Assembly: GCA_026770705.1 (NCBI GenBank)
Contig: JANJGN010000071.1
Location: forward strand, 2,480,001 to 2,544,000
Length of the DNA: 64,000 bases
From: Isurus oxyrinchus
Lineage: Eukaryota
Direction of reading: 5' to 3'
A program made the translations under genes and the position numbers. Within the stretch, counting starts at the first letter, position 1. Each line of letters starts with the position of its first letter. Shown here one piece after another: positions 16,981-58,189 of this stretch. The notes under the pieces were generated by a model, which was not told where the DNA came from, did no database searches, and saw nothing but the letters and a program-made list of their open reading frames with translations.

Positions 16981-16981
16981 T

Positions 16982-18428: not shown

Positions 18429-18537
18429 CTGTAATAGAAACAGAAATGATCAGAGTGACAATCAGAGTGATCAGTGTTTAGTATTATTGATCCAAATCGA
18501 AAATTCCACCCACAATACATACATTAATTATTGATAC

Positions 18538-23029: not shown

Positions 23030-23069
23030 ATGATCGGGAAATCCTACTTCCTCCTGTCACTTCTCCAAG
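23030..23069 (+). CDS. Leader exon D, MIGKSYFLLSLLQ; exon spans 22990-23069
   Basis: Acceptor ctctttcacag, ATG 23030, donor caag|gtaat, phase 1. Confidence 0.85.
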
Positions 23070-27000: not shown

Positions 27001-28020
27001 ACCCTTTTCTCTACATCGGCTGATGAAGTGGTCTATGGATTGTGTAGGCTGATGAAATGACATAAACTCTAGTTGATGAATATGGAGTTTCACCTGATTC
27101 TGAACCTGTCTTCCAATATCGTCCATATCTATTGGGGATCCTTTCGCTCTTCTGCTGTTAATCCTGACGTGTTCAGCCTGTGTAGACCTTCATTCCCAAT
27201 CACGAGGTGAATTTTTATGGCTTGTTCGTCTGGTTCAGTCACACCTGAATCAGGAAACCAGAGCTCTGTACGCTGTTTAAACATTCTGAATTCAGATAGT
27301 CGGTCAGCTACATCACAGTTCAAACTGGGGAATTTTGTGGACATTCTGACAATATTCCTTTGACCTTCCTTCTCCTACAGGACCTGGGATGAGTGTCGCT
27401 TTAGCCCCTTTCGTGCGCTTTTCCGAAGCTCCGCCCACGAAGATGGGTTGTGGCAGGAACACACCACGGAGTAATGGAGTCTTTGTTTTTTATTCAATTT
27501 GCTGTTCAGCAATCTCGAAGCCGCCCGTTATAATCACTAACTTCTCTGGGCTGATTTTTATAATGGTTTTTGTGTGTTTGACTCTCCCTCGCTCACTATC
27601 GATCCAGCCCACACCCTGGTCACTCGCCTTCCCTGACTGAGCTAACCCGCTGCTGGTCCTGGCGATACACACTGTCCCACTCACTGACCTACAGGCCGTG
27701 TGCTGTAATCTCACCACGAGGGATCCGTCTGCTCCCCAGCTCTTTACTTGAGCTCTTTCCCGTCACTGTGTCTTCAAAGGTTTCCTGAGCAGTCAGTACA
27801 CTGCGATTTCAACCCTCTCTGATGCTGTGTCTCTGTTGTGGTCTGACCAAAGCGTCGAGGGTCGTCTCATGTCATGTAGCTCGATCTCAGGCTGTTCACC
27901 ATGTCATACCTGTACTGAATCTTGCGGCCAGAATGTTTGGCCACCGCTGATCACCATGTTGTGTTTTTATAATGATATAAAGGCACCAGCCACTGATACG
28001 GAATTGGGTAAATACATTGT
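24080..28020 (-). mobile_element. Mirror copy of the degenerate Gypsy element at 4100-8050
   Basis: ORFs 27129..27344, 26673..26993, 25866..26240 and 24788..25009 mirror the left-arm remnants. Confidence 0.8.
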
Positions 28021-30797: not shown

Positions 30798-31172
30798 TTG
30801 GACTATCACAAGTGTGGAAAGGTGACACTCCAGGAGAGGTGACAGCGCACGAAGGTTCGTGTGTACAGATTCCATGTAATTACAGTTATCCATCATATTT
30901 AGTAGCGAGATCACCAGTCGGAATCTGGTATATGAGAAGGAATTGGGAAAAATGGAATGAACGGTCTATAGCCTTTCACTCCAAGGATCATAATCGCGAG
31001 TTACCACAGTTCCACCATCGGACCCAGCTGTCTGGAGACCTGAAAGATGGCGACTGTTCCCTGATTATAAACAACATCAGACGGGAAGATGCAGGATATT
31101 ATTTATTCAGCCTAGAATTTGACAACAGGAATAGATACAACGACCGTCCTGAAACCCAGCTTCACGTTTCTG
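30798..31172 (+). CDS. Siglec-like V-set exon V1, essential Arg replaced by Ser (YYLFSLE)
   Basis: Acceptor ctctccctag, donor g|gtaagt, 375 nt open, phase 1-1, Siglec Cys pattern. Confidence 0.9.
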
Positions 31173-31419
31173 GTAAGTGCTGTGTTATAATTACTCAACA
31201 ATTCACATCCAACACTCAATGGGAAATAATAGTGTTTGATTTGCTTGTTTTTTGGCCGTGTTAACCAGCGCCACTATTTTTAATGATTTGTCTATTTCTG
31301 CTCCCAGATCCATAAGCTTATTGTGTGTGATTGAATCCACATCATAGCTGTAACATAAACCGAGCTGAGGGGTGATGACACCTCCCCCCTGAGTGAAGTA
31401 TCTCCTCCCCACTACACCT

Positions 31420-33180
31420 TCCACCCCTCACACTGTCCGTGTAAACCCCCGTCCCATCTCCAGCCTCTCTTTCCCCTCCAAAGTCCTGCAACCTGTTTCC
31501 ATCTCCCGAATCTGTTCCCATCTTTCCCGGAACTCCATGTTTGAATCCCTCCAATCAGGTTCCCACCCCAGCCACTGTGCTGAAACAGCTCTTATCAAGG
31601 TCACAAATGGCATCCTGTGTGACTGTGACAAAGGTCAACTTTCCCTCCTCGTCCTTCTCGATCTGTCTGCAGCCTTTGACACGCTCGACCACACCATCCT
31701 CCTCCAACACCTCTCCACTGTCGTCCAGCTGGGTGGGACTGCTCTCCCCTGGCTCCATTCTTATCCATCTCATCGTAGCCAGAGAATCACTTGCAATGGC
31801 TTTGCAGCATCATCTGAACAGTGTTGGTTTTCACCTGTCCACTGAGGATCCCCAGCTCTACCTCACCACCACCTCTCTCGACTCCTCCACTGCTGCTAAA
31901 TTATCAGGCTGCTTATCCGACATCCAGTACTGGATGGGCAGAAATTCCCTCCAATTAAATATTGGAAAGACTGAAGCCATTGTCTTCATTCCCCGCTCCA
32001 AACTCTGTTCCCTCGCTACCAACTCCATTCCTCTCCCTGGCAGCTCTCTGAGATTGAAGCCAATCTGTTCACAGCTTTGTTGTCCCATTTGATCCTGAGA
32101 TGAGCTTCCGGCCTCCTATCTGCGCCCTCACTAACACCGTCTATTTCCACCTCCGTAACATCGCACGACGTCACCCTGTCTCAGCTCATCTGCTGCTGAA
32201 ACCCTCATCCGCGCCTTCATTACCTCCAGTCTCGACTGTTCCAACACACGCTCTACACTCCATAAACTTGAGGCCATCCAAAACTGCTGACCACGTCCTT
32301 ACTCACACCAAGTCCCGTTCCCTTATCACCCGCTCTGCTCGATGACAGAGACTGGCTCCTGGTCAAGCAAAATGTCAACGTCCAAATTTTCATCTTTGTT
32401 TCCTCACTATCCCTGTAATCTTCTCGTCCTCCTCCAGTACCTACAACCATCCCATTCTCTGTAACCTCTTCAAGCCTCTACCGCTTCCCTATATCTGTAA
32501 ATTCATCCTGCCCAACAAACCTACCAATCTCTGCAACCTCCTCCAGCCACAACAAACCTCCCTATTTCTGTAACTTCCTCCTGCCCCTAAAAGCTTCCCT
32601 ATCTCTGTAGCCTGCTCCAGTCCCGACAACTTTCCCTGCCCCTGTAACCTGCCCCAGTCACTACAACCCTCCCGACCTCTGCAAACTCCTCCAGACTCTA
32701 CACTCTCCCAATCTCTCTTAACTTTTCCAGCCCCTACAAACCTCCCTATCGCTATAACTCATCCAATCACTACAAACCTCGCTATCTCTGTAACCTCCTC
32801 CAGCCCCTACAACCCTCCCTATCTCTGTAACCTCCTCCAGACCCACCAACCTTCAGAGGTCTCTGCGCTCCTCCAATTCCAGCCTCTTGACCATCCCCCG
32901 ATCTCAACACTCTAACATCGGTGGCCATGCCTTCAGCTGCCTGGGGACCGAGCTCCGTAATACCCTCCCTTAAGCCCTCTCCATCCCTCACACTCACTCT
33001 CTCTCTCTCACTAACCATTTCATCCCTCTTTTAAGTTTCTCCATAACACCGATCCCTTCTGGTCAGCTGTCGCTAATATCTCCACATGTGTCTGCGTGAC
33101 ATACTTTGTTTTATGACGCTCCTGTGTAGCACCTTGGGGTGATTTGTCATGTTAAAGTTGTTGTGAAAATATAAGTTGTT
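31420..33180 (+). mobile_element. L2-clade LINE 3' part with embedded 37-bp minisatellite (32410-32850)
   Basis: RT motifs LLDLSAAFDT, LNIGKTE and FHLRNIAR, followed by L2-type 3' sequence. Confidence 0.8.
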
Positions 33181-33299
33181 GCCCTTTGACCCTCGACCCC
33201 AGATTGAGTCTTATTTTTGAGGGAATGTACAACCTGCTTAGATTTCTGACCAAAGTGTCATTTGATTATTTTTATTGAGCGAATGCCAAGCCCCGATAC

Positions 33300-33665
33300 C
33301 GAGCGAGAGCCTCCTCATTTGCTGAGTTTAAGGTGATGAGTCAGCCCCTTAGTCCGTAGAGGGGATTCTCCTCGGTAATGTACAGCCTTGTTTGTGTCTC
33401 TCCACAAGCGCATGAGGGATTTGTACAGAGGCTGCAGCGCTGGAGGGGGTCTGCACAGGGGTCCTGGCCTGTCCTGAGCTGGTTTTAGCAAGGACCACTC
33501 TGGCCTTGGCAGCTGAAAGCCAGCCATTGGACAGACAGGGCCTGTCACAAGGAGCCTGTTAGTCACTCCCCCCCGTGTCTCCTGTGCTCGGATCCAGACC
33601 ATGTTGGCTGGTGGATCTGGCTCAGGAAGGGTCCTCCCCATGGGACCCCCAGATGGAAGGTGGGT
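33300..33665 (-). mobile_element. Non-LTR retrotransposon C-terminal fragment (second copy ~35610-35970)
   Basis: Frameshifted GFQLPRPEWSLL..QLRTGQ..CACGETQT..I resembles the C-terminal zinc-knuckle region of RTE-X/I-like LINEs; clade uncertain. Confidence 0.5.
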
Positions 33666-33719
33666 CGAGCGGGTCAGTCACTTGCATGTTTATTCTGCAG
33701 TTTTAATATTTTAAGAAGG

Positions 33720-34455
33720 TAAGAATGTAGGAACATAAGAAATAGGGACAGGAGCAGGCCATTCGGCCCCTCGAGCCTGCCCTCGCTGATCTGGTTGTGG
33801 CCTTAACTCCATTTTCTTGCCTGTCCCCCAAACCCTTGACTCCCTTGTCGATCAAAAACCTGCCTCACTCAGCCTTGAGTCTATTCAATGGCCCAGCCTC
33901 CACTGCTCTCTGGGGAAGAGAATTCCACAGGCTAGCGCCCCTCTGAGAGAGGAAATTCCTCCTCATCTCAGTCTTAAATGGGAGAGTCCTCATTCCGAAA
34001 CTGTGCTCCCTGGTTCTAGATTCCCCCACGAGGGGGAAACATCCTCCCAGCATCCACCCTGTCAAGCCCCCTCGGAATTGGATATGTTTCAATAAGGTCA
34101 CCCCTCATTCTTCTAAACTCCAATGGATACAGGCCCAACCTGCTCAACATTTCCTCACAGGACAAACCCTTTAGTCCCAGGAATCAGCCCAGTGAAGCTT
34201 CTCTGAACTGCCTGTACACAATGATCCTGTTACAATCTCACTAACGCCCTGTGCAGCTGTTGCAAGACTTCCCTCCTTTTATACTCCATCCCTTTGCAAT
34301 AAAGGCCAACATTCCACTTGCCTTCCTCATTCCGTGGTGTTCCTGAATGCTGACTTTCTGTGATTCATGTACAAGGACACCCAGATCCCTCTGTACTGCA
34401 TTCTGCAGCCTGTCTCCATTTAAATAATATCCTGTTTTTCTATTCTTCCTGCCAA
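33720..34455 (-). mobile_element. CR1-clade LINE 3' fragment (second copy ~36030-36765)
   Basis: QRDLGVLVHESQK..KASGMLAFI and RNFLSQRGASLWNSLPQRAVEA. Confidence 0.85.
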
Positions 34456-34576
34456 AATAATTTGTTGCCATTCTCCTCAGTATTGACCATCCCCCCAATT
34501 CAGCCTCATCTGTAAATTATGAGTCTAGTGGATCCACAAACCATCCAGAGATAAATATTGAGATTTCTCTCCCCAG

Positions 34577-34945
34577 TTGGACTGTCACAAGAGTGGAAAG
34601 GTGACACTCCACGAGAGGTGACAGCGCAGGAAGGTTCGTGTGTACAGATTCCATGTCATTACAGTTATCCATCGTGTCTGGAAAACCAACCGCGAGGTGG
34701 ACTCTGGTTTAATAATGAGAAACAGATTCCCTGGGCTCCCATTGCCTTTCACTCCAAGGATCACAGTCACGAGTTACCACGGTTCCACCATCGGACCCGG
34801 CTGTCTGGAGACCTGAAAGATGGCGACTGTTCCCTGATTATAAACAACATCACATGGGAAGATGCAGGACCTTATTTTTTCAGAATAGAATTTGACAATG
34901 GTCCGAGCCATAACTATTACCCTGTAACCCAGGTTCACGTTTCTG
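34577..34945 (+). CDS. Siglec-like V-set exon V2, Arg present (PYFFRIE)
   Basis: Acceptor ctctccccag, donor g|gtaagt, 369 nt open, phase 1-1. Confidence 0.9.
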
Positions 34946-36883
34946 GTAAGTGCTGTGTTATAATTACTCAACAATTCACATTCAACACTCAATGGGAAAT
35001 AACACAAACTGTGACGTTTACATATTAACACAAAACACAGGTTATTATAACACACTGTCTGATTCTCAATAACCTGGTGATAGCTTCCAGTTCAGTCCTA
35101 AAGCAACCTCTAATACTCACTTTAATATCAATGATTAAATGTGTTGACTGTGTCTATCAATGTTATCAGTTTATCCACTCCCATCAATCTCTCAAATCCT
35201 GTCTTGAAGTCTGACATATCGACAGAAGAAAGATTTACATTTCTACAGCGCCTTTCACCACCCTAGACTTCCCACCCTAAACCTCTCCCTCTCCCTCTTC
35301 CTCTCCCTCTCTCTCTCTCTCTCTCTGTCTCTTTCTCTCTGTCTCTCCATAACACCGACCTCTTCTGGTCAGCTGTCGCTAATATCTCCACATGTGTCTG
35401 GGTGACATACTTTGTTTTATGACGCTCCTGTGTAGCACCTTGAGGTGATTTGTCATGTTAAAGTTGTTGTGAAAATATAAGTTGTTGCCCTTTGACTCTC
35501 GACCCCAGATCGAGTCTTATTTTTGAGGGAATGTACAACCTCCTTAGATTTCTGACCAAAATGTCATTTGATTATTTTTATTGAGCGAATGCCAAGCCCC
35601 GATACCGAGCGAGAGCCTCCTCATTTGCTGAGTTTAGGGTGATGAGTCAGCACCTTAGTCTGTAGAGGGGATTCTCCTCGGTAATGAGCAGCCTTGTTTG
35701 TGTCTCTCCACAAGCGCATGAGGGGTTTGTACAGAGGCTGCAGCGCTGGAGGGGGTCTGCACAGGGGTCCTGGCCTGTCCTGAGCCGGTTTTAGCAAGGA
35801 CAACTCTGGCCTTGGCAGCTGAAAGCCAGCCATTGGACAGACGGGGCCTGTCACAAGGAGCCTGTTAGTCACTCCCCCCCCGTGTCTCCTGTGCTCGGAT
35901 CCAGACCATGTTGGCTGGTGGATCTGGCTCAGGAAGGGTCCTCCCCATGGGACCCCCAGATGGAAGGTGGGTCGAGCGGGTCAGTCACTTGCATGTTTAT
36001 TCTGCAGCTTTAATATTTTAAGAAGGTAAGAATGTAGGAACATAAGAAATAGGGACAGGAGCAGGCCATTCGGCCCCTCGAGCCTGCTCTCACTGATCTG
36101 GTTGTGGCCTTAACTCCATTTTCCTGCCTGTCCCCCAAACCCTTGACTCTCTTGTCGATCAAAAACCTGCCTCACTCAGCCTTGAGTCTATTCAATGGCC
36201 CAGCCTCCACTGCTCTCTGGGGAAGAGAATTCCACAGGCTAGCGCCCCTCTGAGAGAGGAAATTCCTCCTCATCTCAGTCTTAAATGGGAGAGCCCTCAT
36301 TCTGAAACTGTGCTCCCTGGTTCTAGATTCCCCCACGAGGGGGAAACATCCTCCCAGCATCCACCCTGTCAAGCCCCCTCGGAATCGGATATGTTTCAAT
36401 AAGGTCACCCCTCATTCTTCTAAACTCCAATGGATACAGGCCCAACCTGCTCAACATTTCCTCACAGGACAAACCCTTTAATCCCAGGAATCAGCCCAGT
36501 GAAGCTTCTCTGAACTGCCTGTACACAATTATCCTGTTACAATCTCACTAACGCCCTGTGTAGCTGTTGCAAGACTTCCCTCCTTTTATACTCCATCCCT
36601 TTGCAATAAAGGCCAACATTCCACTTGCCTTCCTCATTCCGTGTTGTTCCTGAATGCTGACTTTCTGTGATTCATGTACCAGGACACCCAGATCCCTCTG
36701 TACTGCATACTGCAGCCTGTCACCATTTAAATTATATCCTGTTTTTCTATTCTTCCTGACAATATAATTTGTTGCCATTCTCCTCAGTATTGACCATCCC
36801 CCCAATTCAGCCTCATCTGTAAATATCGGGTTCAGTGGATCCACAAACCATTCAGAGTTAAATATTGAGATTTCTCTCCCCAG

Positions 36884-37249
36884 CTGAACCCTCACAAGAG
36901 TGGAAAGGTGACACTCCACGAGAGGTGACAGTGCAGGAAGGTTCGTGTGTACAGATTCCATGTCATTATAGTTATCCATCATGTCTGGAAAACCAACCGC
37001 GAGGTGGAGTCTGGCTTAATAATGAGGAATGGAGAACATCGTCTATAGCCTTTCACTCCAAGGATCACAGTCACGAGTTACCACGGTTCCACCATCGGAC
37101 CCGGCTGTCTGGAGACCTGAAAGATGGCGACTGTTCCCTGATTATAAACAACATCACATGGGAAGATGCAGGACCTTATTTTTTCAGAATAGAATTTGAC
37201 AATGGTCCGAGCCATAACTATTACCCTGTAACCCAGGTTCACGTTTCTG
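36884..37249 (+). CDS. Siglec-like V-set exon V3, Arg present (PYFFRIE)
   Basis: Acceptor ctctccccag, donor g|gtaagt, 366 nt open, phase 1-1. Confidence 0.9.
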
Positions 37250-37977
37250 GTAAGTGCTGTGTTATAATTACTCAACAATTCACATACAACACTCAATGGG
37301 AAACAACACAAACTGTGACGTTTACATATTAACACAAAACACAGGTTATTATAACACACTGTCTGATTCTCAATAACCTGGTGATAGCTTCCAGTTCACT
37401 CCTAAAGCAACCTCTAATACTCACTTTAATATCAATGATTAAATGTATTGACTGTGTCCATCAATGTTATCAGGTTATCCACTCCCATCGATCTCTCTAA
37501 TCCTGTCTCGAAGTCTGACTTAGCGACAGAAGAAAGATTCACAATTCTGTAGCACTTTTCACCACCTCAGCATGGACCAAATCACTTCACAGCCAATGAG
37601 CTGATTCCTGAATTGTAGTTACTATTGTAATGTGGGAAACACAGCAACCAATTTGTGCACAGCAAGCTCCCACAAATTGCAAAGTAAAAAATGGCCTAGA
37701 TCGCTGAGGGACTGATGGGTTAGTGCACTCCAAACTCTGGTCTGCTCCACCACCCTCACCCACTATTATCAGTTCAAGTGTCTCGGAGTGAACGTGTATT
37801 AAGCTGAGAGACAGAAACACCAAAGTCTCAAAGCAGGAAATTCTCTCCTAATCATTGTAACCTCTCAGATCTGATATCATCCTTGTAAAAGTGCTTTCTC
37901 TTGTGGGACTGTGATTTCTATTTGAACTGATACTTCACGTTATATTTCTCTAAAAGGATCCATTCTCTGTCTGTTAG

Positions 37978-38274
37978 ATTTCACAGATAAACCCATGATA
38001 TTCCCTGCTGAAATTATTGCAGGAAAGCGTGTGGATGTAAGCTGCACCTTCAACACAACGTGCAATGGAACAGCAGCACCTGTCTTAACCTGGGACACTC
38101 CCACTGACGTACCTGGATCAGTCTCAAACACTGTAACTCAGCATGGTGTCACTCTGACCTATACTTCTGTTCTGACCCTGATCCCATCACTCAAACACCA
38201 CGGACACACTCTCAGCTGCAGAGTGAGATATCCATCTGTTTCATCGGAGCGGACCCTCGTACTAACTGTGCAAG
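37978..38274 (+). CDS. Siglec domain-2 C2-set exon DFTDKPMIFPAEIIAGKRVDVSCTFNTTCNGTAAPVLTW...LSCRVRYP...LVLTVQ
   Basis: Acceptor ctgtctgttag, donor caag|gtaaga, 297 nt, phase 1-1; extra Cys (TTCNG) for the V-C2 inter-domain bond typical of Siglecs. Confidence 0.9.
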
Positions 38275-38599
38275 GTAAGAACGGACACCCTTCATTCTAC
38301 ATCAGCACTCCCTCAGCGCTGACCCTCTGACAGTGCAGCCCGTTCTCAGTGTCCACATTCTCATGCCTCTCAAAGTGCTTCACAGTCGATAGAAGTTAAC
38401 TGATCTTTATTTGATTGTTGCTGAATGAAGAGACAAGCTGTCTAAACTTTGCATCTCACACACATTATTTTCCATGGCAACACCTCCTCCAATCAGAGAC
38501 CACTTGCTGATTAACCAGCACTCTCTTCCCTTTAAATATAAATTGTTGTTCACTTTCTGTTGGTAAACCTGCAATCTGTCTTGTTGAGTCCGGTCCTGA

Positions 38600-38749
38600 C
38601 ATCTGAATATCACAATGAACAGAACAAGTTCCAACAATGAGCTGTGGTTGGTGATTCCTCACGTTACATCCAGGGACACTGGAGACTATCAGTGTGCTCA
38701 GAGAATGAACATGGAGCAGTGGAGGGGTTCATAACCATCACTGTGGAAC
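38600..38749 (+). pseudogene. Broken third Ig exon (3' half only, frameshifted)
   Basis: HLNITMNRTSSNNELWLVIPHVTSRDTGDYQCA, 1-nt shift at ~38699, then ENEHGAVEGFITITVE with donor c|gttagt. 5' half and acceptor are absent. Confidence 0.75.
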
Positions 38750-39863
38750 GTTAGTTAAGACAAACTTCAACATCTCTCTCAGATTGAGACACTACAAAAA
38801 CACACATAAATATCCAGCCTTAAACAGACACCTGCAGACACACAATCCCACATCTATGAGCACACACAAAGGCACACTCACAAACAAACACACTAGCACA
38901 TACTCCCCTGTGGATTACCTGACCTCCCTCAGTGCTGCACCGGAGAGTTGACCTGGATTCTGGGATTTGTGTTCCCTTTCATATTTATGGAAGAATATGG
39001 AAATTGCAAAGTCTATTACAGACACTCAGATGCACAGAGATACTCACAGATACTCTCTGCCTCTCCAACTCTCTATCCTACTTTAAGAACCTTCCTGAAA
39101 TCTAACTCTTTGACCAGTCACCTGTCCCAATTCCTCCTTACGTGATTTTGTGTGAAATTTTGTTTGAGTATCTGAGAGTAAGAGGGAAGTGGAGAGGTTT
39201 AGGAAGGGAATTCCTGTTGGTGAAAAGCTTACATCAAGTTCTCAGCTTTCCAGTGCCCATTTTTCACATGATGTCCATGTTCATAATGGGGATTGCCTAT
39301 GTAAACATCACGCTGTAGTTACACTCTCCCACCAGTGGTAGCACGGTAACACTTAACCCTTGCATCTCCAAGCTTTTCAAGCAATTTCACTTCCTAATTT
39401 GCTACTATTCACCTTAACCAGTCCCTGTGGGAGCGAGTTCCATATTCTCCCCTCTCTCTGGGTAAAGATTGGAACTGTTTATTAAGCGGGGGGTGTAAGT
39501 CCGTGTGGGAGTCCATCCCGATACTGCCCGATTCGCACACACGTCCGAGATGGATTTCCACCCTGCACTAAACGTTTCCAGAATTTTCTACAGCACAATC
39601 CTGTACACAGCGATGGAGAGAAACATTGGACAGGGAGTCCAACAGCACAATGATCCATTCTCACCAATGTTCCACGCTAAGGGGAAAGTTCCGATTGTCC
39701 ACTCTTAGAGTGTTTACAATGAAAACATTCATTCCACATTGAATTCCAGTGGATGGGTCAATATTACAGCAAATGTTGCAGTGATATGAAGCTTGATTGT
39801 TCAGCCAGAGTGAGAGATTGAAAGCGGAGAGTCAGTGATGATTTCTTTCTGTGTGTTCTCTAG

Positions 39864-41350: not shown

Positions 41351-42839
41351 TCTTCTCTGCCGATGCTGCCAGACCTGCTGAGTTTTTCCAGGTATTTCTG
41401 TTTCTGTTTTGGATTTCCAGCATCTGCAGTTTTTTTGCTTTTAGTGCTGGGCAGTTCCTCAGCAAGGATTCGGGCCACAAAACATTGCGAGTGCTGTGGG
41501 TCTGCGCCACGATTTAGAGAGCTGTGCTTGGCACGCCTATTCTAGTCCCAGTCCAGTGTGGTGGGGACAGCCTGGCAGTCCTGGGTTGGTGGTGCCCAGC
41601 ATGGTGTGAGTGACGTGGTCAGTCGCTCACACACGTCGGTCCTGGGGGTGGGTGGCTTGATACTAGGCCGCAGGTGGCACAATCCCAGTCAGGGGAGGCA
41701 TCTGCAGCCTGTCAGTGGGGAGCAGGTAATATAGAGAGTAGGGGTGGGGGTGGGAATCGAGGGGGGCCGGTGGTCTCTGTAAGTCACAGTACAATGGGCC
41801 TCTAGTTGGAGAGAGGTCAGGTCTACATGGGGCATTGGGATGTCAACATCAGACAGTCTAGGGAGGAGGACTGGGATGTCAACCCCGAACACAATAAGAT
41901 CAAGGATTAGAGAGGAAGGGAGGAGACTGATTGGAAGGAGGGGAATGTGCACATTATGCTCCTCCAGCACGATGGGAGGGACTGTGATGGTTACGGGAGT
42001 GGGGGGGAGTGACGTGTGAGGGGATAGAAGCTTACCTGGTGGTATTGCCTCAGCCTCACCCTTTTTCAAGCTGATCCAATGTCGCAGTTGAAGAATAAGC
42101 TACAAAACAAATTGGCAGGGGAGGTCTCCCAGGGCCTGTGGGAGACATCACCCACTGCATCTTCGGCCTGTTTGAAGGGGCACCCGAACAATTCCGGCTT
42201 TTCCAAATGATGAGGAAGACACAGCTGCACCCCGAGTCCCCTACTGGGGATCCAGAAGGTTGCAATAGCGCTGCGAGGGACTCATGGGCTCCACAGTGAC
42301 TCCCTAATTAGCGACTGGAAGGTTTATGTTCATTTATCTTTATTATCCGTTCATATTGAGCAATGGAGCTCCTGATTTGTCACCTTTCTGTACCTCGTCC
42401 AATGCTTCTGTTATCAGGACTTCCACATCGATGTGAAAGAGCCATGATGATAGCAGACAGTCGCACAATGGGAATGGCACTAGGCCAGTGATCCAGAGGC
42501 CCAGGTGAATGCTTTGAAGGCACGGGTTCAAATCCCACCACGGCAGCTGGAGGAATTTCAATTCGATTAATCAATAAATTTAATTGATTGATACATTTTT
42601 TTCTTATTCATTTCAGGGATGTTGGTGTCGTTGACTAGGCCAGTATTTGTTGCCCATCCCCAATTGCCTTTGAGAACATCTGGATATCTGAGTTAGGATC
42701 AGGAGTAGGTCACTCAGTCACTCGAACCTGCTCCGCCATTCAGTAAGATCATGGCTGATCTGATTGTCACCTCAACCTCACATTCCTGCCTACCCCCAAT
42801 GACCTTTCACCCCCTTGTTAATCAAAATGTATCTAGCTC

Positions 42840-44800
42840 TGTGGAAGGGGAGCCAATCAATCGGGCTGCTTTGTCCTGGATGGTGTCGAGCTTCTTGAGT
42901 GTTGTTGCAGCTGCACTCATCCAGGCATGTGGAGAGTATTCCATCACACTCCTGACTTGTGCGTTGTAGATGGTGGACAGGCTTTGGGGAGTCAGGAGGT
43001 GAGTTACTGTCTGCAGGGTTCCCAGCCTCTGACCTGCTCTTGCAGCCATAGTGTTTATATGGCTGGTCCAGTTCAGTTTCTGCTCAATGGTAACTCCCAG
43101 GATGTTGATATTGGGGGATTCATTGATGGTAATGCCATTGAATGTCAAGGGGCGATGGTTATGAATGGTCTGTGGAATATTCTGGTACAAAATTTCAACA
43201 CTCGGACTCCAGATGCAATATTCAAGTGGTTCCTTTATTAGGCATGTGGGGAGCAAACGCTGGGCAGTCCAGGTGCTTCTCCACCGAGGTTCAAATGAGC
43301 ACAGTTTATATATTTTTTACTCTCAGTTACAAGGTAATGGTATTAGTTAGACAAAGGCCACAGCACAATGACCCTCCGGTGGGCTGATAATTGTGTTCTT
43401 GTACAGTAATTACAGGGCAGAGACTGGCTATTGTCCTTTTGAGACAGCAAAGAATCTATGTTTGTTCAATACAAAAGGTTTCCGAGGGCTGACTGGATGT
43501 GGTTCAAGGCCATCGGACGGTGTGAAATAACCTTCCCCATTTCTTGATTGAGTCACCCAGTGTCCTTGTGTGTGTGTCTCCCATTTCCTCATTGCAAATT
43601 TCCAACTGAGCCCTTTGTACAGGTTTTTAAGTTTTCACGTAAGGATGTGTACGCTTTGGCGCCCTAGCTGCTGGTCCTGGCTGGCTCTTGAACATAAATC
43701 CAAATTTTCTGCACCTTCAATTAGATTCTCTCTTGTTGGAGCTGGTCATTGCCAGGTACTTGTGTGGCATGAATGTTACTTGTCACCTGTCAGCCCAAGC
43801 CTGGATGTTATCCAGGTCTTGCTGCATTTGGACATAACTTGCTTCAGTATCTGAGGAGCCGTGAATGGTGCTGAACATTGTGCAAACATCAGCAAACATC
43901 CCCACTTCTGACCTTATGATGGAAGGAAGGTCATTGATGAAGTAGTTGAAGATGTTTGAGCCTAGGACACTACCCTGAGTAACTCCTGCAGTGATGTCCT
44001 GGAACAGAGATGATTGACCCCCAACAATCACAACCATCGTCCTTTGTGCTGGGTATGACTCCAAGCAGCGGGGAGTTTTCCCCCGATTCCCATTGACTCC
44101 AGTTTTGCTCGGGCTCCTTGATTTGCCACACTCAGTCAAATGCTGCCTTGATGTCAAGGGCAGTCCCTCTCACCTCTGGAGTTCAGCTCATTTGTGCATG
44201 TTTGAACCAAGGCTGTAATGAGGCCAGGAGCTGAATGATCCTGGTGGAACACAAACTGAGCGTCAGTGAGCAGGTTCTTGCTAAGCAGGTGCTGCTTGCA
44301 AGCGCTGTTGATGACCCCTTCCATCACTTTAGTAATGATCAAGAATAGACTGCTGGGGAATTGGCTGGGTTGGATTTGTCCTGCTTTTTGTGTACAGGAC
44401 GTACCCCATAGCCGGGTAGTTGCCAGTGTTGCAGCTGTACTAGAAAATTCCAGAAAAGCTTGGCTAGGGGCGCAGCAAGTTCTGGAGCACAAGTCTTCAG
44501 TACTATTGCCAGAATATTGTCAGGGCCTGGAGCCTTTGCAATATCCAGTGCCTTCAGCCCTTTCTTGATGTCACATGGAATTAATCGAATTGGCTAAAGA
44601 TTGGCATCTCTGATGCTGGGGACCTCCGGAGGAGGCCGAGATGGATCACCCACTCAGCACTTCTGGCTGAAGATTGTTGCGCATGCTTCAGTCTTGTCTT
44701 TTGCACCGATGTGCTGGGCTCCTCCATCATTGAGGATGGGGATATTTGTGGAGCCTCCTCCTCCAGTGAGTTGTTTAATTGTCCACGACTGGATGTGACA
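42840..44800 (-). mobile_element. CR1/L2-group LINE RT fragments interrupted by a ~580-bp insert (43165-43745)
   Basis: GVTQGSVLG..FINDL..MFAD, ILGVTIEQKLNWTSHI, YNAQVRSVMEY. Confidence 0.85.
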
Positions 44801-46639
44801 TCTGGAATGCGAAGCTAGTCTCAGTAATGGTGACCATGAAACTAAGGCCAATTGTTGCAAAAACCCATCTGGGTCACTAATGCCCTTTGGGGAAGGAAAC
44901 CTGCCGTCCTTACCCATTCTGGCCTACGTGTGACTCCTGACCCGCAGCAATGTGGTTGACTCTTAACTGGCCCCTGAAATGGCCGAGCAAGCCACTGAGT
45001 TATATCAAAACCCGCCACAGACCAGTCAAACCAGGCGAACTGCAGCACTTCGAAAAGGCAGCTCAGCACCCCCTTCTCAAGGGGTCAGTCAGGAACAGGT
45101 AACAAACGCTGTCCACATCCCGTGAAAGAATTTTGGTAAAAAGGTAGCCGTGTATCACCACCCACGGCCAGCGCCAACCCCCCCACCCCTACCTGATTGC
45201 ACCAGTTTCAGATTACACCAGGTCAATGAACGGATAGAAACCCAAACCAATGAGATGAGCACAGAGAAGGATCAAGCCAGAGAGAGTTGGTGGGAAGAAT
45301 TGGGAAATCAACAAAAAAGGCAGAGCGGACACTAACACTATAACAAAGTAAAGACCAGAGGAGGAAGGAAGCAAGTGTGAAGAGGAATTGAGAGTAGAGC
45401 TGGTAGGCTGCTTGTCGAAGCCAAGGACCCTCCATAGGTCACACCCACAGTGCTTTTGGGGAGGGAGTTACATGATTTTGACCCAGGATCATCAAGTGTT
45501 GCACTGGCAGAGCCTTTAAAGTAAAGGGACCTTTACTACCCGTGCACCCCCCCCGCCCTACAAAGCTGTTGACCTGCTGAGTCCACCTGTACAGGCAACC
45601 TCCAGACAGTTGGCTACAGAGGCCATTGCAGCTGCTGAATATGACTTCCAGTTTCAAACCCTTCATGAATGCAAGGATGGAGAATTCAGCAGGAATATTC
45701 CTGCACACCCTGTGGCAGATCCTGTAAATAAAAGGGACCTTTACTCACTCCCCAAAGCTGCTGACCTGTTGATTCACATCTACAGGCAACCTCCAAATAG
45801 TCAACTAGAGAAGACAATGCAGCTGCTGAATGTGACTCCTAGTTTTAAACCCTTCACTCTGGAAAGAAGGAATCCAGAGCAATGGCCTCAGTATGATTCT
45901 TCACAGAAACTGATTTTAAATCTCATGTCTAAGTATTATTTTTCCTTTGCTTACATTTTAATCCCTGCACCTGATGGCTTTATCGCTTCAACTTAAATAA
46001 CTTTCAGCAGGAGCCAGGTTCAAATTGAATGGACAAGCTGGCTTGGGGGGCCAAAAGGCCTACTCCTGCTTCTGTTTATTTATGTTGGTGTTGTTATGTA
46101 GTGGAACTAGAGAGGTTATAGCAGTTATGAGAACATTAAGCAAACAGCAGCAAGAATTGAACACCTACGTTGTGGTTTATGAAAAGGTTTTCAACCTGGT
46201 CAACTGGTAAAATCTGTTGAAAGTGGGCTATCATGGCGTGTGCCCTTTGTGAGATATTTGTAACAACGTTCTCGATGTCGGAACAGTTTGCATTGAACAA
46301 AGCTGATCTTTACCCAGAACTTCAGAGGAAGGGGGGACAATTGTTCCCTGGTGTGGGGGGCATGGTGGGGGGGGAGGGTGAGGGGGAGACAAGTAGCCTG
46401 AAATACCAAGCCAGACACTTTGTGAAGACAAAAGTTGTTTATTCATTTTTTTTTACAAATCATAATCTTTACAATTAAAGTCCCGACAAGATAATGGTGA
46501 ATCATGAACACATTGTCGGGGTGAATCTGTGCCCGGGAGCATAAAGCAGCAAAATCAGGAGCCCGCTTTACATCTCTCTGAATTTTAACTATCATTAACC
46601 CCAGTAACATCCATTCAAATGACTTAGTCATAAGATTCC

Positions 46640-47160
46640 TCACACATTCACTTGCACACTCACACACCCATACCCACACAGACACACTGACACACTCACT
46701 CATTCACATTGACACACACTGACACAGTCACACACACCCACACAGACACACTGACACACTCACTCATTCACATTGACACACACTGACACAGTCACACACA
46801 CCCACACAGACACACTGACACACTCACTCATTCACATTGACACACACTGACACAGTCACACACACCCACACAGACACACTGACACACTCACTCATTCACA
46901 TTGACACACACTGACACAGTCACACACACCCACACAGACGCACTGACACACTCACTCATTCACATTGACACACACTGACACAGTCACACACACACACACA
47001 CACACACACGCTGACACAATCACACACATTCACATTGACACGCACTGACAGTCACACATACACACACACACGCTGACACAATCACACACATTCACATTGA
47101 CACACACATATTGACAGTCACACACACACGCTCATAAAGATAGACACAAACACAGTCACG
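46640..47160. repeat. CA-rich ~64-bp tandem repeat
   Basis: Direct reading. Confidence 0.9.
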
Positions 47161-47460: not shown

Positions 47461-47577
47461 CTAATATCTACAGCAGAGACCACAAGTCTCATTTGGTTCT
47501 CTCCAATTACAGCAGTTACAGCAGAATCTGCAGTGCCGCTGTCTGCTCATTCTCTTCTGGCGCTGCAGCAAGGAGCC
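47461..47577 (-). CDS. hamp: Hepcidin exon 3: GSLLQRQKR/MSRQRHCRFCCNCCNWREPNETCGLCCRY*
   Basis: Acceptor cctcctgcttttccag, furin site RQKR, eight Cys in hepcidin order (C-x2-CC-x-CC...C-G-x-CC), TAG at 47463-47461. Confidence 0.92.
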   Translation of the reverse strand, partial: GSLLQRQKRMSRQRHCRFCCNCCNWREPNETCGLCCRY

Positions 47578-47654
47578 CTGGAAAAGCAGGAGGACAATAG
47601 GTGAGAACATTCCGGAAAGAAAGAAGGCATCATTTCAATCAGGCGCGTCATTGG

Positions 47655-48345
47655 AAGGAGGATGGCGCATTTCTATAGCGCCTTTCCCCTCCTCAGGATG
47701 GCCCAAAGTGTTCCACAGCTGAAGGAAGGACTTTTTCTGAAGTGAGCTCACCGCTGTAATGTAGGAAACGCAGCAGGCAATTCACGCACAGCAAGATCCC
47801 ACAAACAGAAATGTGATAATGGCCCCGATTTTCAGTTTTTTACCAATGTCAGTTGAGGGATAAATGTTTGCCCCAGGAAAGCGGACATAACTCCACCCCA
47901 TCCACCCCCCACCACCCCCTCCACACATACCCCCAACTCCTGACGCACTTCATTTAAATTGTGGCCATGGAATCCTCTACATCCATCTGAGAGGGCAGAT
48001 GTTGTCTCAGTTTAACATCTCATCTGAAAGACAGCGCCTTCAACAGTGCAGCACCCCCTCAGTACTGACCCTCCGACTGTGCAGCACTCCCTCAGTACTG
48101 ACCGTCTGACAATGCAGCACCCCCTCAGTACTGACCCTCCAACAGTGCAGCACTCCCTCAGTACTGGCCGTCTGACAATGCAGCACCCCCTCAGTACTGA
48201 CCCTCCGACTGTGCAGTCCCCCGCCGGTACTGACATTCTGACAGTGCAGCACTCCAAGACTGACCGTCTGACAATGCAGCACCCCCTCAGTACTGACCCT
48301 CCGACTGTCCTGCCCCCCCGCCGGTACTGACCCTCCGACAGCTCG
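47655..48345. mobile_element. Deu-type SINE running into a 33-bp minisatellite (48040-48345)
   Basis: gcatttctatagcgcctttc..gcacagcaagatcccacaaac..catctcatctgaaagacagc, then tandem units; sibling copies at 50030-50620 and 61755-62025. Confidence 0.65.
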
Positions 48346-49875
48346 GTAATTTCTCAATTATGCCTGGTGGTCCTTTTAACTCAGAGCTGAGAGTTGCAGA
48401 GAATCGAGCACACATCCTGAACTGACACTTGCAGTGCAAGTACTGGGAGCGCGCTGGTCATTATCATGCTGCTGTCTGTGGGATCTTACTGTGCGCCAAT
48501 GGCTGATTCTTTTCCCACATTACATCAGTGACCTCACATGAAAGAAAAAAAGCACTTGATTGTCTGCGAAACACTTTGGGACGTCCTGATGTGTTGGAAG
48601 GCGCTAGAGAAATGCAAGTCCTCTTTGTCTTTCACTCGATCCTCTAAGGTGTCTGTTGATTAACCAGCCTCTCGGTGTATGATGTAGGCCTGGTTATAAA
48701 CAGTTAGAAGGATCAAATATCAAAAGTGCTTTGGCTGACAGTCAAACCGATTGTGCATTCGGAGAGATTAGATATGGTCTGCACACAATGACTCCAGTCT
48801 CTGGCATTGACTGCCGCCTGGGGTCTCCCTTCCACATAACACTCACAACTTGCATTTACACAGCGCCTCTGACATTGCAAAATGTCCCAGCCCACATTAC
48901 CGGAGCGTAAATCAGAGAGAAGTCTAACACTGAGTCACATATGGAGATATTAGGGATAGGTGACCAAAAGCTTGGTCAAAGATGTCAGTTTTTAAGGAGC
49001 GTCTTAAAGGAGAGAGAGAGAGAGAGGCAGAGAGGTTAAGGGAGGGTATTCCGGAGCTCAGGGCCCCAGGCAGCTGAAGGCACGGCCACCAATGGTGGAG
49101 CGATGGGAATCAGGGGGACCCGGGAGATGCAGTAATTTCAGAGATTTTGGAGGAACATCGGGACCGGAGGAGGTGTTCTCCTGCTCCATATCTCTCTCTC
49201 TCTTCCTCTCTTCCACTCCTCCTCTCCCTGTCTCTCTCTCTCCTACTCTTCCGCTCAATTGACCTCTCTCCCAATCTTTCTCTCCTCTCTCCCTTTTCCT
49301 GTCTCTCTCCCTCTCTCTCTCCCTGTCTCATTCTCCCACTCTGTATCTCTCCCTCTCTCTCACACTATTTTTGTACCTTTCGCTCACTCTGTAACTCTCC
49401 CTTTCCTGTTAATTTCTCTCTCTTGGACAATCTCTCTTCCCTTTTCACTTTCCCTCACTCTGCATCTCTTCTTTAATTTCTCCCTCTGTCACTCTCTCCC
49501 ACCTATGTTCTTTCCCTTTCACCCCTCCCCGTCCCACTCTCTGTCTCTCTCTTCCAATCCCTCCCTCCCCCATTCCATCCCTCTCTCCGACTCTCGACTC
49601 CCAGCCTCTCTTTAACCCACTCCCAGGCTGGATCAGTCTCCCTCTCACTATTCCCGGCGTGGGTTACATTTAAAATTCCTGTGGGGATATGTTCACTTCC
49701 TTGGAATTGCCTCTTCCCAGCTTTGCAAAAAAAGGGGGGGGGGGCTCGATTTCAAACATGCCTCCTGAGTATAACCGAGACAGACTGCCACTGAAATCAG
49801 CTTGAAATCAGAAAACTTTCTGTGGAAGAAACGAGCAGGGAGAAACCTTAAAATAAGGAATGAATTTCCACCTAC

Positions 49876-49932
49876 CGTGTCCGGGGAATCCACAGATTTC
49901 TCAATCGTCGAAGAACCTAAAGCAGTGTCAAC
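49876..49932 (-). CDS. hamp: Hepcidin exon 2 (prodomain) VDTALGSSTIEKSVDSPDT
   Basis: Acceptor ttctttctttttgcag, donor acg|gtaggt, 57 nt, phase 0-0. Confidence 0.8.
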
Positions 49933-50029
49933 CTGCAAAAAGAAAGAATTTATCAGGGAGAAAGTGAGAGGAGGATTGAGGGAGAGGGAGAGAGAGAGAG
50001 AGAGGTACAGGAGAGAGAGGGGGAGGAGG

Positions 50030-50620
50030 ACAGACTTGCATTTCTCTAACGCCTTTCACCACATCCCAAAGCATTTCACAGCCACTGAAGGATGTTTTTG
50101 AAGTGCACTCACACTGTAGGAAATGTGGCAGCTGATTTGTGCACAGCAAGATCCCACAAATAGCAATGTGATCATGGCCTAGATCATCTGTTTTTGGTGA
50201 TGTTGGGTGAGGGATAAATATTGGTCCCAGGACACCGGGGAGAACACCCCCTGCTCTTCCTCCAAATAGTGGCTTTGGGATCTTTCACACCCGCCCGAGA
50301 GGGCAGACGGGGGACTCGGTTTAATGTCTCATTCAACATTGTTGTGCTCCCTCAGTACTAACCCTTTGACACTGCAGCACTCCCTCAGTACTAACCCTTC
50401 GATAGTGCTGCACTCCCACAGTATTGTCCCTCCGTCAGTGCAGCGCTACCTCAGTACTGACCCTCCGACAGTGCAACACTTCCACAGTACTGACCCTGTA
50501 ACAATGCAGCACTTCCTCAGTACTGACCTCCGACAGTATAGCACTCACTCAGTACTGTCCCTCCAATAGTGCAACACTTCCACACTACTGACCCTGTGAC
50601 AGTGCAGCACTCCCTCAGCA
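50030..50620. mobile_element. Deu-type SINE plus 33-bp minisatellite in hepcidin intron 1
   Basis: Same body as 47655-48045, followed by tandem units. Confidence 0.65.
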
Positions 50621-50689
50621 CGGAGTGTTGACCGACGTTATGGGACTGAATTCCCTGGAGTGAGACTCAGACCAGAGATTTAGGTAGGG

Positions 50690-51540
50690 TTGTTCCGGCT
50701 GGAGGAGGTTACAGCGATAGGGAGGGTTGTAGAGGCTGTAGGAGGTAACAGAGATAGGGAGGGTTCTAGAGGCTGTAGGAGGTGACAGAGATAGGGAGGG
50801 TTGTAGGGGCTGTAGGAGGTTACAGAGATAGGGAGGTGAGTAGGGGCTGTAGGAGGTTAAAGAGATGGGGGGGGTTGTGGGGGCTGGAGGAGGTTACAGA
50901 GGTAGGGAGGGTTGTAGAGGCTGGAGGAGGTTACCAAAATAGATACTGTTGTAGGGGCCATAGTAGGTTACAGAGATAGGGAGAGTTATAGTGTGGAGAG
51001 GACGTTATAGAGTTCATGAGCATTGTAGGGGCTGGAGGAGGTTACAGTGATTCTGAGGGTCGTGGGGCCTGGAGGAGGTTACAGAGATAGGGAGGGTTGT
51101 AGGGCCTGGAGGAGGTTACAGAGATAGGGAGGGTTGTAGGGTCTGGAGCAGGTTACAGAGATAGGGAGGGTTGTAGGGTCTAGAGGAGGTTACAGTGATC
51201 ATGAGGGTTGTGGGGCCTGGGGGAGGTTACAGAGATAGGTAGGGTTGTAGGGGCTGGAGGAGGTTACAGAGATAGGGAGGTTTATAGGGGCTGGAGGAGG
51301 TTACAGAGATAGGGAGGGTTGTAGGGGCTGGAGGAGGTTACGGAGATAGGGACAGTTGTAGTGGCTGGAGGAAGTTACAGAGATAGGGATTGTTGTAGGG
51401 GCTGGAGGAGGTTACAGATATAGGGAGGGTTGTAGCGGCTGGAGGAGGTTACAGAGATAGGGAGGGGTGTAGGGGCTGGAGGAGGTTACAGAGATAGGGA
51501 GGGTTGTAAGGCCTGGTGGAGGTTACAGAGATAGGGAGTG
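50690..51540. repeat. 37-bp minisatellite (ggaggaggttacagagatagggagggttgtaggggct)
   Basis: Direct reading, about 22 copies. Confidence 0.9.
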
Positions 51541-51739
51541 GCTGAGGAGGGATTGAAAACAAGAATGAGAATTTCAGGGGAAACGACAGAAGGAAATGAT
51601 GTTAAATTCATAGAGGGCGACAATATTAAAGGCACGAACATAATAATATCAAACTGCGGAAGAGACCAGTCTATCTGGGTGGTAGACGTAGAGTCATGTG
51701 CAAGAAACACCTCACCCAGAGGGACATCTCTTAGCTTAC

Positions 51740-51817
51740 CCTCGACAAGGAGAAGAAGTGACTCAGCTGCAGGGAGAGCAGCAAAGTCAGAGTGAACAAG
51801 ACAAGTCGCCATTTCAT
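51740..51817 (-). CDS. hamp: Hepcidin exon 1 (signal peptide) MKWRLVLFTLTLLLSLQLSHFFSLSR
   Basis: ATG 51817, hydrophobic core, donor agg|gtaagc, phase 0; gives an 83-aa prepropeptide with exons 2 and 3. Confidence 0.82.
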
Positions 51818-51899
51818 CTGGGAGCTTCCCATCTCTGCCTGTCTCTTCTGATCTTCTGGCTCTGCTTTGATGCTTTGGTTTGTAACTAGAGGAGCTTCC

Positions 51900-52120
51900 T
51901 GCTCTTATACCTGAAACACTTGAAGGGGACAGCCGGGGGCGGGTTGCTGTGTGGTATCACACCCATTTCTGGATATTGCAGTGTCGATGTTCCCTGTCCC
52001 ACTGGCCTGGGACCAGCAGTAAGGTCACTGGGACATTGACTGTCTGGCACCGAGAACTATCAGTCCCTCCGCAACGCCCTTCACCTTGTGCAAATATGTG
52101 TTCATATTGATGCAACACAA
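51900..52120 (-). promoter_or_regulatory. Putative hepcidin promoter
   Basis: TATAAGA at 51909-51903, GC box ~51934-51943, C/EBP-like ttgtgcaa 52086-52093, tgatgcaa 52108-52115. Confidence 0.5.
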
Positions 52121-56368: not shown

Positions 56369-56772
56369 GTTTGAGCCTCACGCCCGGTGGTTGTTTCCTG
56401 TCCCAGCTGAGGACTGGCGCCATGTTGTACATCCTGTAAATCCCGCCAGTCTCTCCCAGCACTTTCCATGCCTGGCGCTATTTCCATGGTGCGCTTCAAA
56501 TCGATGTCGGCTTCTGCGAGTAAACGGCTCTGAATGGCGTTGGGGTGAACGACACAAACCAATCGGCCCCGCAACATGTCATTGAGTGTGTCTCCGAGGT
56601 CCCAGTGCTCAGTCACCTGCTTCCACTTCACTGTATAGGTTGCGATGGACTCTCCCTGGGCCCTTACTCTGGAGTTAAACTTAAACCTCTGCATTATTAC
56701 CCACGGCTTCAGCTGAAAACAGATCTTCATGAGGTCGACTAATTGGTGAAAAGATTTAGAATTGGGTGCAAT
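55700..56772 (-). mobile_element. Gypsy gag-protease fragment, related to the 18538-21882 element
   Basis: MQRFKFNSR..LNDMLRGRLV, knuckle CSRCGGH..CHHC, GEGPSLLGRDW. Confidence 0.8.
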
Positions 56773-57057
56773 ACACGTCACTGTCTTCAGCTCTGAGACT
56801 ATCAATCCTCACCAAACAATTCTTCCCTTCCAAGTCGCCGATTATTTTAGCACGTCCCACGAATGTGGCCACCCCATAATTGGGATCTTTGGTGTATGTG
56901 ATGGTATATTTCCATCTATACCAATATTTATACCAAGCTCCGTGCAGTGCTGTGTAAGAGTGGGAAGGAAAGTCAAAGCTACACGGAATAACCACACAAG
57001 AGCTGCTGATGGCCCTCCGAGGCAGCGCCTTCATAGACCATCCCTCTGACGTCACTC
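56772..57057 (-). pseudogene. Divergent Siglec-like V exon truncated at the F strand
   Basis: Acceptor ttgcctttcag; GVTSEGWSM..SSCVVIPCSFDFP..GAWY..GRAKIIGDLEGKNCLVRIDSLRAEDSDVY, then Gypsy sequence and a stop. Confidence 0.8.
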
Positions 57058-57877: not shown

Positions 57878-57923
57878 CTTGCAGCAAGCTGATGAAGATC
57901 AATATCAGACCGACCTCTCCCAT
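57878..57923 (-). CDS. Leader exon of second Siglec-like gene, MGEVGLILIFISLLQ; exon spans 57878-57937
   Basis: Acceptor ttttccatttag, donor caag|gtacaa, phase 1, in frame with the V exon at 57057. Confidence 0.75.
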
Positions 57924-58189
57924 CTTCAGTTCCTCATCTAAATGGAAAATGATAAAGACAGAGACTTTTTCATAAATTGTCCCCAGTGTTTCTTCCTCAA
58001 ACAACAACAACTTGTGTTTAAATGGCACCTTTCAGGGAATTAAACAGCCCCAGGGAATTATCTAATGTCAAGACAAGGAAGGAGAGATTGAGAAGGGACA
58101 TCGCAAACCGATTCACCAAACACGGCAAAAATTCATTGTTCCCTCACTCCCTGTGCTGGGTGTCCAGCTTTTTCTCTCAGTGAGTTTAG

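Follow-up and report, generated by a model that had tools for sequence, protein, structure and literature searches.

The closest described counterparts of the gene family reported here are the type 2 hepcidins (HAMP2) of teleosts and the type 1 hepcidins; papers cited by PMC number are drawn on in excerpt throughout. The ferroportin epitope of hepcidin comprises His3, Phe4, Ile6 and Phe9 (PMC7915682); fish type 1 peptides carry the motif Q-S/I-H-L/I-S/A-L, and type 2 peptides are without this motif and mostly antimicrobial (PMC8502971). When carp hepcidin lacked its front end, ferroportin was no longer internalised, and the killing of bacteria improved 2-4-fold (PMC7356000). According to the excerpts, type 2 hepcidins are restricted to teleosts (PMC9073008), six hepcidin copies were the highest number known in 2018 (PMC6240063), and Nile tilapia has 12 (PMC8774982). 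Hepcidin is among the nurse shark plasma proteins (PMC9207270), and cartilaginous-fish hepcidins are already present in databases. Here we analyzed a hepcidin gene on the reverse strand of a 64,000-nt stretch of the Isurus oxyrinchus genome (contig JANJGN010000071.1, here C71, positions 2,480,001 to 2,544,000), which is called the window in its whole length. As a single hepcidin this gene is ordinary, and the novelty lies in the array family to which it belongs. It is one of 89 derived copies, and its sequence makes it likely, with a probability of roughly 0.6, that the product is a secreted antimicrobial host-defence peptide and not an iron hormone.

Like the HAMP2 genes of sea bass, large yellow croaker, tilapia and seahorse, as far as the excerpts describe them, the array genes have three exons and a conserved prepro part, occur in multiple copies, and encode a fast-evolving mature peptide with eight cysteines and without the type 1 motif, while a type 1 gene is retained (PMC8502971, PMC6240063, PMC9073008). 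The HAMP2-like traits found in the array are multiple copies, loss of the motif, and an excess of amino-acid changes in the mature part. Copy numbers given for teleost HAMP2 are 3-12 (PMC6240063, PMC8774982), compared to 89 (43 intact) in the array. Unlike teleost HAMP2, the array probably descends from the shark's own type 1 locus, has an 8-residue loop with a sequon, and is interleaved with Siglecs over ~13.8 Mb of contigs. It appears to lie outside the teleost HAMP2 clade, because its prepro part groups with lamniform type 1 genes and its flanks are collinear with the hepcidin surroundings on another contig, C34. We found no report of a shark hepcidin expansion in the literature searched, which mostly leaves out subscription papers, where higher counts may exist.

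Type 1 hepcidins (human, PDB 1M4F and 6WBV; the C34 genes; Cetorhinus, XP_078389754; Mobula, XP_062912710; Heptranchias, XP_067831448) share with the window gene the gene structure, the RX(K/R)R site, the cysteine pattern and aromatic residue 9, and the window prepro region is identical to that of Cetorhinus at 52 of 59 residues. The window gene differs from them by the loss of His3 and of a hydrophobic residue 4, by a promoter replaced upstream of about -125, and by having no FFAR gene on its contig. The second hepcidin of Heptranchias perlo (XP_067831447, "hepcidin-like") resembles the array genes in a prepro part near-identical to that of its type 1 sister, in the loss of His3, and in the H-C-R-F-C-C core. 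In contrast to the array, it derives from that species' own gene, as its loop and prepro part group with the sister, and its database cluster holds only two genes; it has lost His3 independently. Mammalian defensin and CD33-related Siglec arrays are characterized by birth-and-death evolution, conserved signal and pro parts, a hypervariable effector part, many pseudogenes and sequence exchange. Unlike in those arrays, a peptide gene and a receptor family were amplified here together in one unit.

Structure and transcripts of the window gene

The window hepcidin consists of exons 51817-51740 (78 nt), 49932-49876 (57 nt) and 47577-47461 (117 nt including the stop codon), all in phase 0, with the donors GTAAGC and GTAGGT and the acceptors TTGCAG and TTCCAG (Table 1). 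The open frame starting with the ATG at 51817 has 83 codons and contains RQKR followed by a 29-residue peptide with eight cysteines. The three phase-0 exons with GT-AG introns, the RQKR site, the eight cysteines and the assignment to the hepcidin family had been proposed in the original prediction and were all confirmed: exon 3 matched Pfam Hepcidin (PF06446) with 31.4 bits (cut-off 27, E 2.3e-7), and the precursor fits the pattern RX(K/R)R followed by C-x2-CC-x-CC-loop-C-x2-CC. The layout with signal, pro and mature parts on three exons is that of the C34 genes. The proposed precursor of 83 amino acids is correct as an open frame and probably too short as a protein. An in-frame ATG at 51832, 15 nt before that at 51817, has a better context (GAGATGG), is conserved in 87 of the 87 copies in which this stretch was mapped, and is the start in the 88-aa protein of the basking shark (Cetorhinus). 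Because this ATG is kept in all of these copies and used in the basking shark model, an 88-aa precursor with a first coding exon of 93 nt is the likelier one.

The mature peptide has an 8-residue loop with an N-E-T sequon, and its front end reads S-R-Q-R-H where the C34 peptide has S-H-L-S-I. A structure model of low confidence (mean predicted local distance difference test value, pLDDT, 60.5) shows a two-strand hairpin with strands 15-20 and 32-37, and a Foldseek search with this low-confidence model gave no match. The best match of the window peptide among solved structures was a 21-residue hepcidin starting at the CRFCCNCC core (E 0.19), which we take to be the bass type-2 peptide; for the C34 peptide it was human hepcidin.

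Table 1. Features in and around the window hepcidin gene (positions within the window).
Feature	Position	Strand	Remarks
Exon 1, coding part (signal peptide)	51740..51832	-	in-frame ATG at 51832; ATG of the original prediction at 51817; hydrophobic stretch seen by eye
Intron 1	49933..51739	-	1807 nt, GT-AG; minisatellite at ~50700-51510
Exon 2 (pro-region)	49876..49932	-	57 nt, 19 codons
Intron 2	47578..49875	-	2298 nt, GT-AG
Exon 3, start: end of pro-region with RQKR furin-type site (47551-47562)	47551..47577	-	putative cleavage
Exon 3, remainder: predicted mature 29-residue peptide and stop	47461..47550	-	8 Cys
TATA-like box	51903..51909	-	from sequence; common to the C34 genes
Array-specific promoter segment	51944..52220	-	blastn of the window against C34 stops at 51943 and restarts at 52221
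Sialoadhesin/MAG-like V exon with early stop	56756..57057	-	upstream part of the cassette; upstream of 68/89 hepcidin copies within 14 kb
Signal-peptide exon of Siglec-like remnant	57878..57937	-	spliced out of frame to hepcidin exon 2 in one X2 contig
Siglec-like gene, tail to tail with hepcidin	30776..38781	+	V open reading frames (ORFs) 30776-31264, 34555-35028, 36862-37332; C2 37965-38270; broken Ig 38600-38781
Downstream flank collinear with C34 hepcidin flank	41443..46918		~90% identity

For transcript support we used contigs of the public runs X1-X4, which represent one sample of ungiven tissue and whose RNA nature is shown by splice joints. None of the runs with matching sequence is registered as RNA, and runs X9-X16, with next to none of the sequence words, were left out of the evidence. 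The junction 49876-47577 appeared as a joint skipping 2298 nt (CT..AC) in nine X1 and five X2 contigs. For the junction 51740-49932, nine X1 contigs contained behind position 49933 a loose end corresponding to the exon 1 end in its array-type form. Both junctions of the original prediction are thereby supported at the level of the family, that is, the contigs back splicing of the array genes and not of the window copy alone. One 60-nt X3 contig represents the window copy's own front end with zero differences. Since majority array alleles carry ~97% (position 47537) and 90% (position 47534) of the summed contig depth in X1, the form of the window copy is a minor one in this run. The summed depth in X1 was ~5e5 over exon 3 versus 1e3 in the intron, with a few hundred in X4, and exon contigs greatly exceeded intron contigs in X1 and X3; contig depth is a poor expression measure, and this pattern hints at strong, tissue-biased expression of the array. 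Spliced transcripts of several array variants exist, and C34-type pieces were also present in X1 and X3. In run X6, from a second organism, a single 696-nt contig combines this core and loop with a different front end, in which residues 3-6 are Q-H-Q-F according to the variant table, and the array type is therefore not confined to one species. One X2 contig joins the Siglec-like signal exon (57878-57937) out of frame to hepcidin exon 2 (49932), which is a read-through product from an upstream promoter. A Siglec-hepcidin fusion protein was rejected, as the signal exon ends in phase 1 and hepcidin exon 2 starts in phase 0, leading to an immediate stop.

The array and its origin

The genome was searched with exon 3, and 7 kb were examined at each of the 88 other copies. 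Among the 93 matches, 89 had 81-100% identity and were located on 14 contigs, two had 57% and were located on C34, and two weak ones on C54 and C21 were rejected as hepcidins; Pfam matches on C126 and C988 showed no alignment to hepcidin exons and were dropped as well. The original prediction took the gene for one ordinary HAMP; it is instead a member of a family of 89 derived copies that lack the ferroportin motif. The 14 array contigs are unplaced and total 13.8 Mb; C52 carries 30 copies (17 intact) and C71 20 copies (11 intact), in both orientations and with a median spacing of ~100-115 kb. If three exons, canonical splice sites, an open frame and eight cysteines are required, 43 of the 89 copies are intact. 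They encode 21 different peptides, and their furin-type site is RQKR (34 copies), RQNR (7) or HQNR (2). The canonical genes on C34 are two three-exon genes 31 kb apart with an identical peptide that begins with M-S-H-L-S-I-C and differs at two of 29 residues from that of the basking shark and at nine from that of Heptranchias.

The copy number might largely be an assembly artefact caused by haplotigs or false duplication, as the contigs are unplaced and the six closest pairs (0-6 differences in 2693 nt) are all formed by copies on different contigs. We consider this very improbable, because C52 and C71 alone carry the numbers given above in both orientations, a comparison of 76 copies over 2693 nt gave a mean difference of 1.4% and only one identical pair, and nearest neighbours mostly differ at 13-34 sites. 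Up to twofold inflation is possible, a wholesale artefact is not, and the 30 copies (17 intact) of the single contig C52 are a floor. The within-array tree was poorly resolved, with 17 of 73 nodes at ≥0.9. A GT-to-TT change of the intron 1 donor, present in 29 of the 76 tree copies, is scattered over this tree (15 steps versus 23 in shuffles, minimum 17), suggesting exchange between copies. This change could be a way to damp dosage.

Between 41.4 and 54.7 kb, the window aligns collinearly to the surroundings of the C34 hepcidin with ~85-92% identity. Upstream of the TATA region, 277 nt in the window replace ~10.7 kb of C34, and the Siglec is inverted relative to hepcidin in the window versus C34. 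In the non-coding tree the stem to the array measured 0.053 and the mean within-array depth 0.013, which indicates one older duplication followed by a recent burst. The window differed from C34a at 30 of 87 mature bases versus 142 of 1935 non-coding ones, and its mature peptide from that of C34 at 16 of 29 residues. In a tree of the prepro region that did not include teleost HAMP2 precursors, the window gene grouped with lamniform type 1 genes with 87% bootstrap. A promoter scan covering 2.5 kb from the start revealed neither a strict STAT site nor GGCGCC in the window gene and the two C34 genes. Sites resembling those of C/EBP (-170) and NF-kB (-380) occur in C34 and are absent from the window, which has a C/EBP-like site elsewhere, at -276; all of these are consensus matches without a chance control.

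A different origin would be an ancient second elasmobranch lineage related to that of rays, whose flanks were later homogenised to C34, so that the 16 differences would be old. The window peptide is nearer to that of Mobula (12 of 29 differences) than to that of C34, shares F9, N12, the N-x-T sequon, L25 and R28 with it, and its silent sites are somewhat diverged. However, these shared positions toggle among few states across vertebrates, and a tree of the mature part alone gave the grouping no support. In the prepro part, the window gene shows 7-8 differences in 59 residues to C34 and Cetorhinus and 34 in 57 to Mobula; its flank is collinear with that of C34 over at least 13 kb (~90% identity), and the protein searches made gave no array-type protein of another shark. 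This origin is rather unlikely; it would also be compatible with an antimicrobial role. The Cys5-Cys6 loop has eight residues in sharks and rays, 10 in Callorhinchus and four in human, and as it is common to all elasmobranch hepcidins examined, the long loop is old and not array-specific.

When proteins of 75-2000 aa were searched by word index for window exon 3, no candidate came up, which is weak evidence, and a search of representative proteins with the C34 exon gave six proteins, none of array type. Annotation tends to miss genes with such tiny exons, and none of the protein collections searched yielded an array-type protein. In a 212-aa database model of Pyxicephalus, one chain comprises two hepcidin precursors; annotation has probably fused two tandem genes.

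Variation and presumed function of the mature peptide

The copies were most diverse in the mature region (0.042), followed by introns, promoter and 3' flank (0.010-0.017), and least diverse in exons 1-2 (0.002-0.004). The mature regions of the 43 intact copies contained 16 shared amino-acid changes and one silent change, where 3.3 are expected at the non-coding rate (P 5e-7), and exons 1-2 contained no shared change versus 4.6 expected (P 0.01); these P values count shared variants and not independent events, and the copies exchange sequence. Exon 2 had no shared variant in these copies, and no shared change hit a cysteine. His3 was present in none of the 86 in-frame array copies, whereas S-H-L-S-I was present in both C34 genes. 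Position 4 was polar in all 29-residue copies, the exception being seven copies with a two-residue deletion, and the N-E-T sequon was kept in 86 of 86 copies. From the loss of His3 in all 86 copies, the need of the motif for ferroportin, and the effect of front-end removal in carp, we infer a host-defence peptide that is probably uncoupled from iron.

Several observations weigh against this conclusion, beginning with the dependence among shared variants just mentioned. Silent changes in the mature part are themselves raised in comparison to C34, with 3 of 12 same-residue codons changed there, compared to 1-2 among the 45-46 of the prepro region (P 0.03-0.06). Defects are apparent in 46 of the 89 copies, and in 36 of them these include the shared GT-to-TT change of the donor; the other, partly overlapping defects are an exon unmapped in the examined stretch (11 copies), frameshifts (3), a bad acceptor (2) and lost cysteines (2). 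Some array contigs may be second haplotypes, so that double counting is possible, and the RNA support comes from one sample without a stated tissue, judged by a depth that measures expression poorly. Leu6 is the commonest state at its position and residue 9 is aromatic in 79 of 79 full-length copies, and given these two residues some ferroportin binding is possible. The net charge is 0 to +4, mostly +2, compared to +5 for C34, which is the opposite of what simple membrane killing predicts.

The last two points also favour the explanation that the array peptides are still iron regulators or signalling ligands acting weakly on ferroportin or on another receptor, with copy number offsetting affinity, and the invariant sequon suggests a constraint other than charge. 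We regard this as unlikely in view of the complete loss of His3 and the polar residue 4. Moreover, the front end is the most variable part of the peptide, which would not be expected with one conserved host target, and a canonical pair is present on C34.

For the antimicrobial function we propose the following course. A segment of at least 13 kb of a C34-type Siglec-HAMP locus would have been duplicated. In the duplicate, the promoter segment would have been newly acquired and 16 of the 29 mature residues replaced, compared to a change of ~7% in non-coding DNA. The cassette, composed of a Siglec-like remnant, hepcidin and a tail-to-tail Siglec, would then have been amplified recently (~1.4% difference), with birth, death and exchange of copies. 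The precursor would be secreted, undergo cleavage at RQKR and adopt a four-disulfide hairpin. Without an action on ferroportin, bulk production might be possible without iron starvation of the animal, microbes would drive the variation, and iron control would be left to the two C34 genes.

Siglec neighbours and linkage

The repeated unit consists, in this order, of a Siglec-like signal exon with a truncated sialoadhesin/MAG-like V exon, hepcidin and a facing Siglec. The truncated V exon occurs in ~118 copies; 68 of the 89 hepcidin copies have it upstream in their own orientation. An opposite-strand Siglec V exon was found within 16 kb downstream of at least 36 of the 89 copies (same-strand control 0), a lower bound that is not blind, as 60 of 150 listed V exons, picked partly for nearness, were used; these 150 were the ones scored among 1034 candidates. 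No membrane or tail exon was found between the Siglec-like gene at 30776..38781 and the window hepcidin. The F-strand arginine (Y-F-F-R) of the sialic-acid site is present in V exons 34555 and 36862, aligned to Siglec-5, and absent from 30776. The best solved matches of the neighbouring Ig exons were Siglec-5, -8, -10 and CD33, followed by MAG, and their best database matches were elasmobranch Siglec-like proteins with mixed automatic names. One neighbouring V exon shared 88% identity with proteins of Carcharodon and 85% with those of Cetorhinus, and 119 of its 119 matches were from sharks and rays, which points to a lamniform shark.

The hepcidins might be decaying passengers of an amplification that targeted the Siglec cluster, given that Siglec V exons far outnumber them (150 scored of 1034 candidates), that the truncated V exon exists in ~118 cassette copies, and that 46 of 89 hepcidin copies are defective. 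Passengers, however, would vary evenly, whereas exons 1-2 are more conserved than the introns and the mature region is much less so; in addition, the shared changes spare the cysteines and several variants are transcribed and spliced. Passenger status is thus quite unlikely, and spread of the cassette may still account for how the hepcidin copies multiplied.

Partial cassettes exist, as 50 of the 118 V remnants had no exon 3 within 14 kb; at C71:2325661-2325738 (~2.326 Mb), hepcidin exon 1 and the upstream V remnant occur without exon 3 nearby, and the end of C52 is listed with this case. The region C71:2280001-2480000 contains Siglec genes with 1-5 V exons, varying numbers of C2 exons and two kinds of tail exons, which alternate in both orientations. 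Within the window, ~4400-8900 and 23200-28900 form an inverted duplication of several kb with matching ORFs on opposite strands, including retroelement fragments. Additional V, tail and leader exons of Siglecs occur on both strands at 874-1362, 9500-18431 and 22486-23068, and several of these are apparently orphaned.

The original prediction placed the window in an expansion of the MAG/CD22 locus and considered the hepcidin-Siglec linkage ancestral. In mammals, FFAR1-3, HAMP and USF2 are found at one locus (PMC4453067, excerpt). On C34, three Siglec V exons lie within 65 kb of the hepcidins, and on the opposite side FFAR genes are located 34, 61 and ~280 kb away. In the gene order of the mammalian FFAR-HAMP-USF2 locus, MAG and CD22 are included. 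A search for FFAR gave 10 matches, three on C34 and none on the array contigs. One FFAR gene beside the C34 hepcidins (C34:15265273-15266194) is split over two frames (84% and 77% to the intact neighbour) and is likely a pseudogene. LSR-family exons were found on C18, C452 and C1620; those at C452:60361 and C1620:70134, on small contigs, are identical and perhaps haplotype duplicates. Among the 150 scored of 353 bHLH candidates there was no match on C34 or the array contigs and USF2 was not found; the bHLH exon on C77 is presumably of MITF/TFE type. For Cetorhinus, Mobula and Heptranchias, the database contigs with hepcidin have the same length as contigs with Siglecs of the respective species. 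The linkage of hepcidin and Siglecs is thus old, as seen at the C34 locus and in other elasmobranchs, and the window is not this conserved locus. The proposed MAG/CD22 expansion was not supported, as the array contigs gave no FFAR, LSR or bHLH match and the neighbouring Siglecs belong to an elasmobranch expansion that has no demonstrated orthology to MAG or CD22. A far link of the array contigs to C34 on one chromosome is possible.

A wider interpretation, which we put forward tentatively, is a lamniform supercluster of several megabases, in which a microbe-killing peptide and sialic-acid receptors were amplified and selected as one cassette. It would comprise dozens of iron-independent, possibly glycosylated and very highly made hepcidins, the largest vertebrate repertoire, and represent a separate HAMP1/HAMP2 split that was repeated on a small scale in sevengill sharks. 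In the literature, the split of hepcidin into an iron hormone and an antimicrobial family is presented as an innovation of teleosts, in which it comprises about a dozen genes at most. If our reading is true, a shark with 30 to 89 such genes would indicate that the split is repeatable across jawed vertebrates and on a far larger scale, and the C34 findings support an old Siglec-HAMP-FFAR linkage. One genome would then provide a natural library of at least 21 variants together with an ancestral-type control. With these, it could be tested which residues decide between ferroportin binding and the killing of microbes, and for what reason an effector peptide was co-amplified with Siglec receptors.

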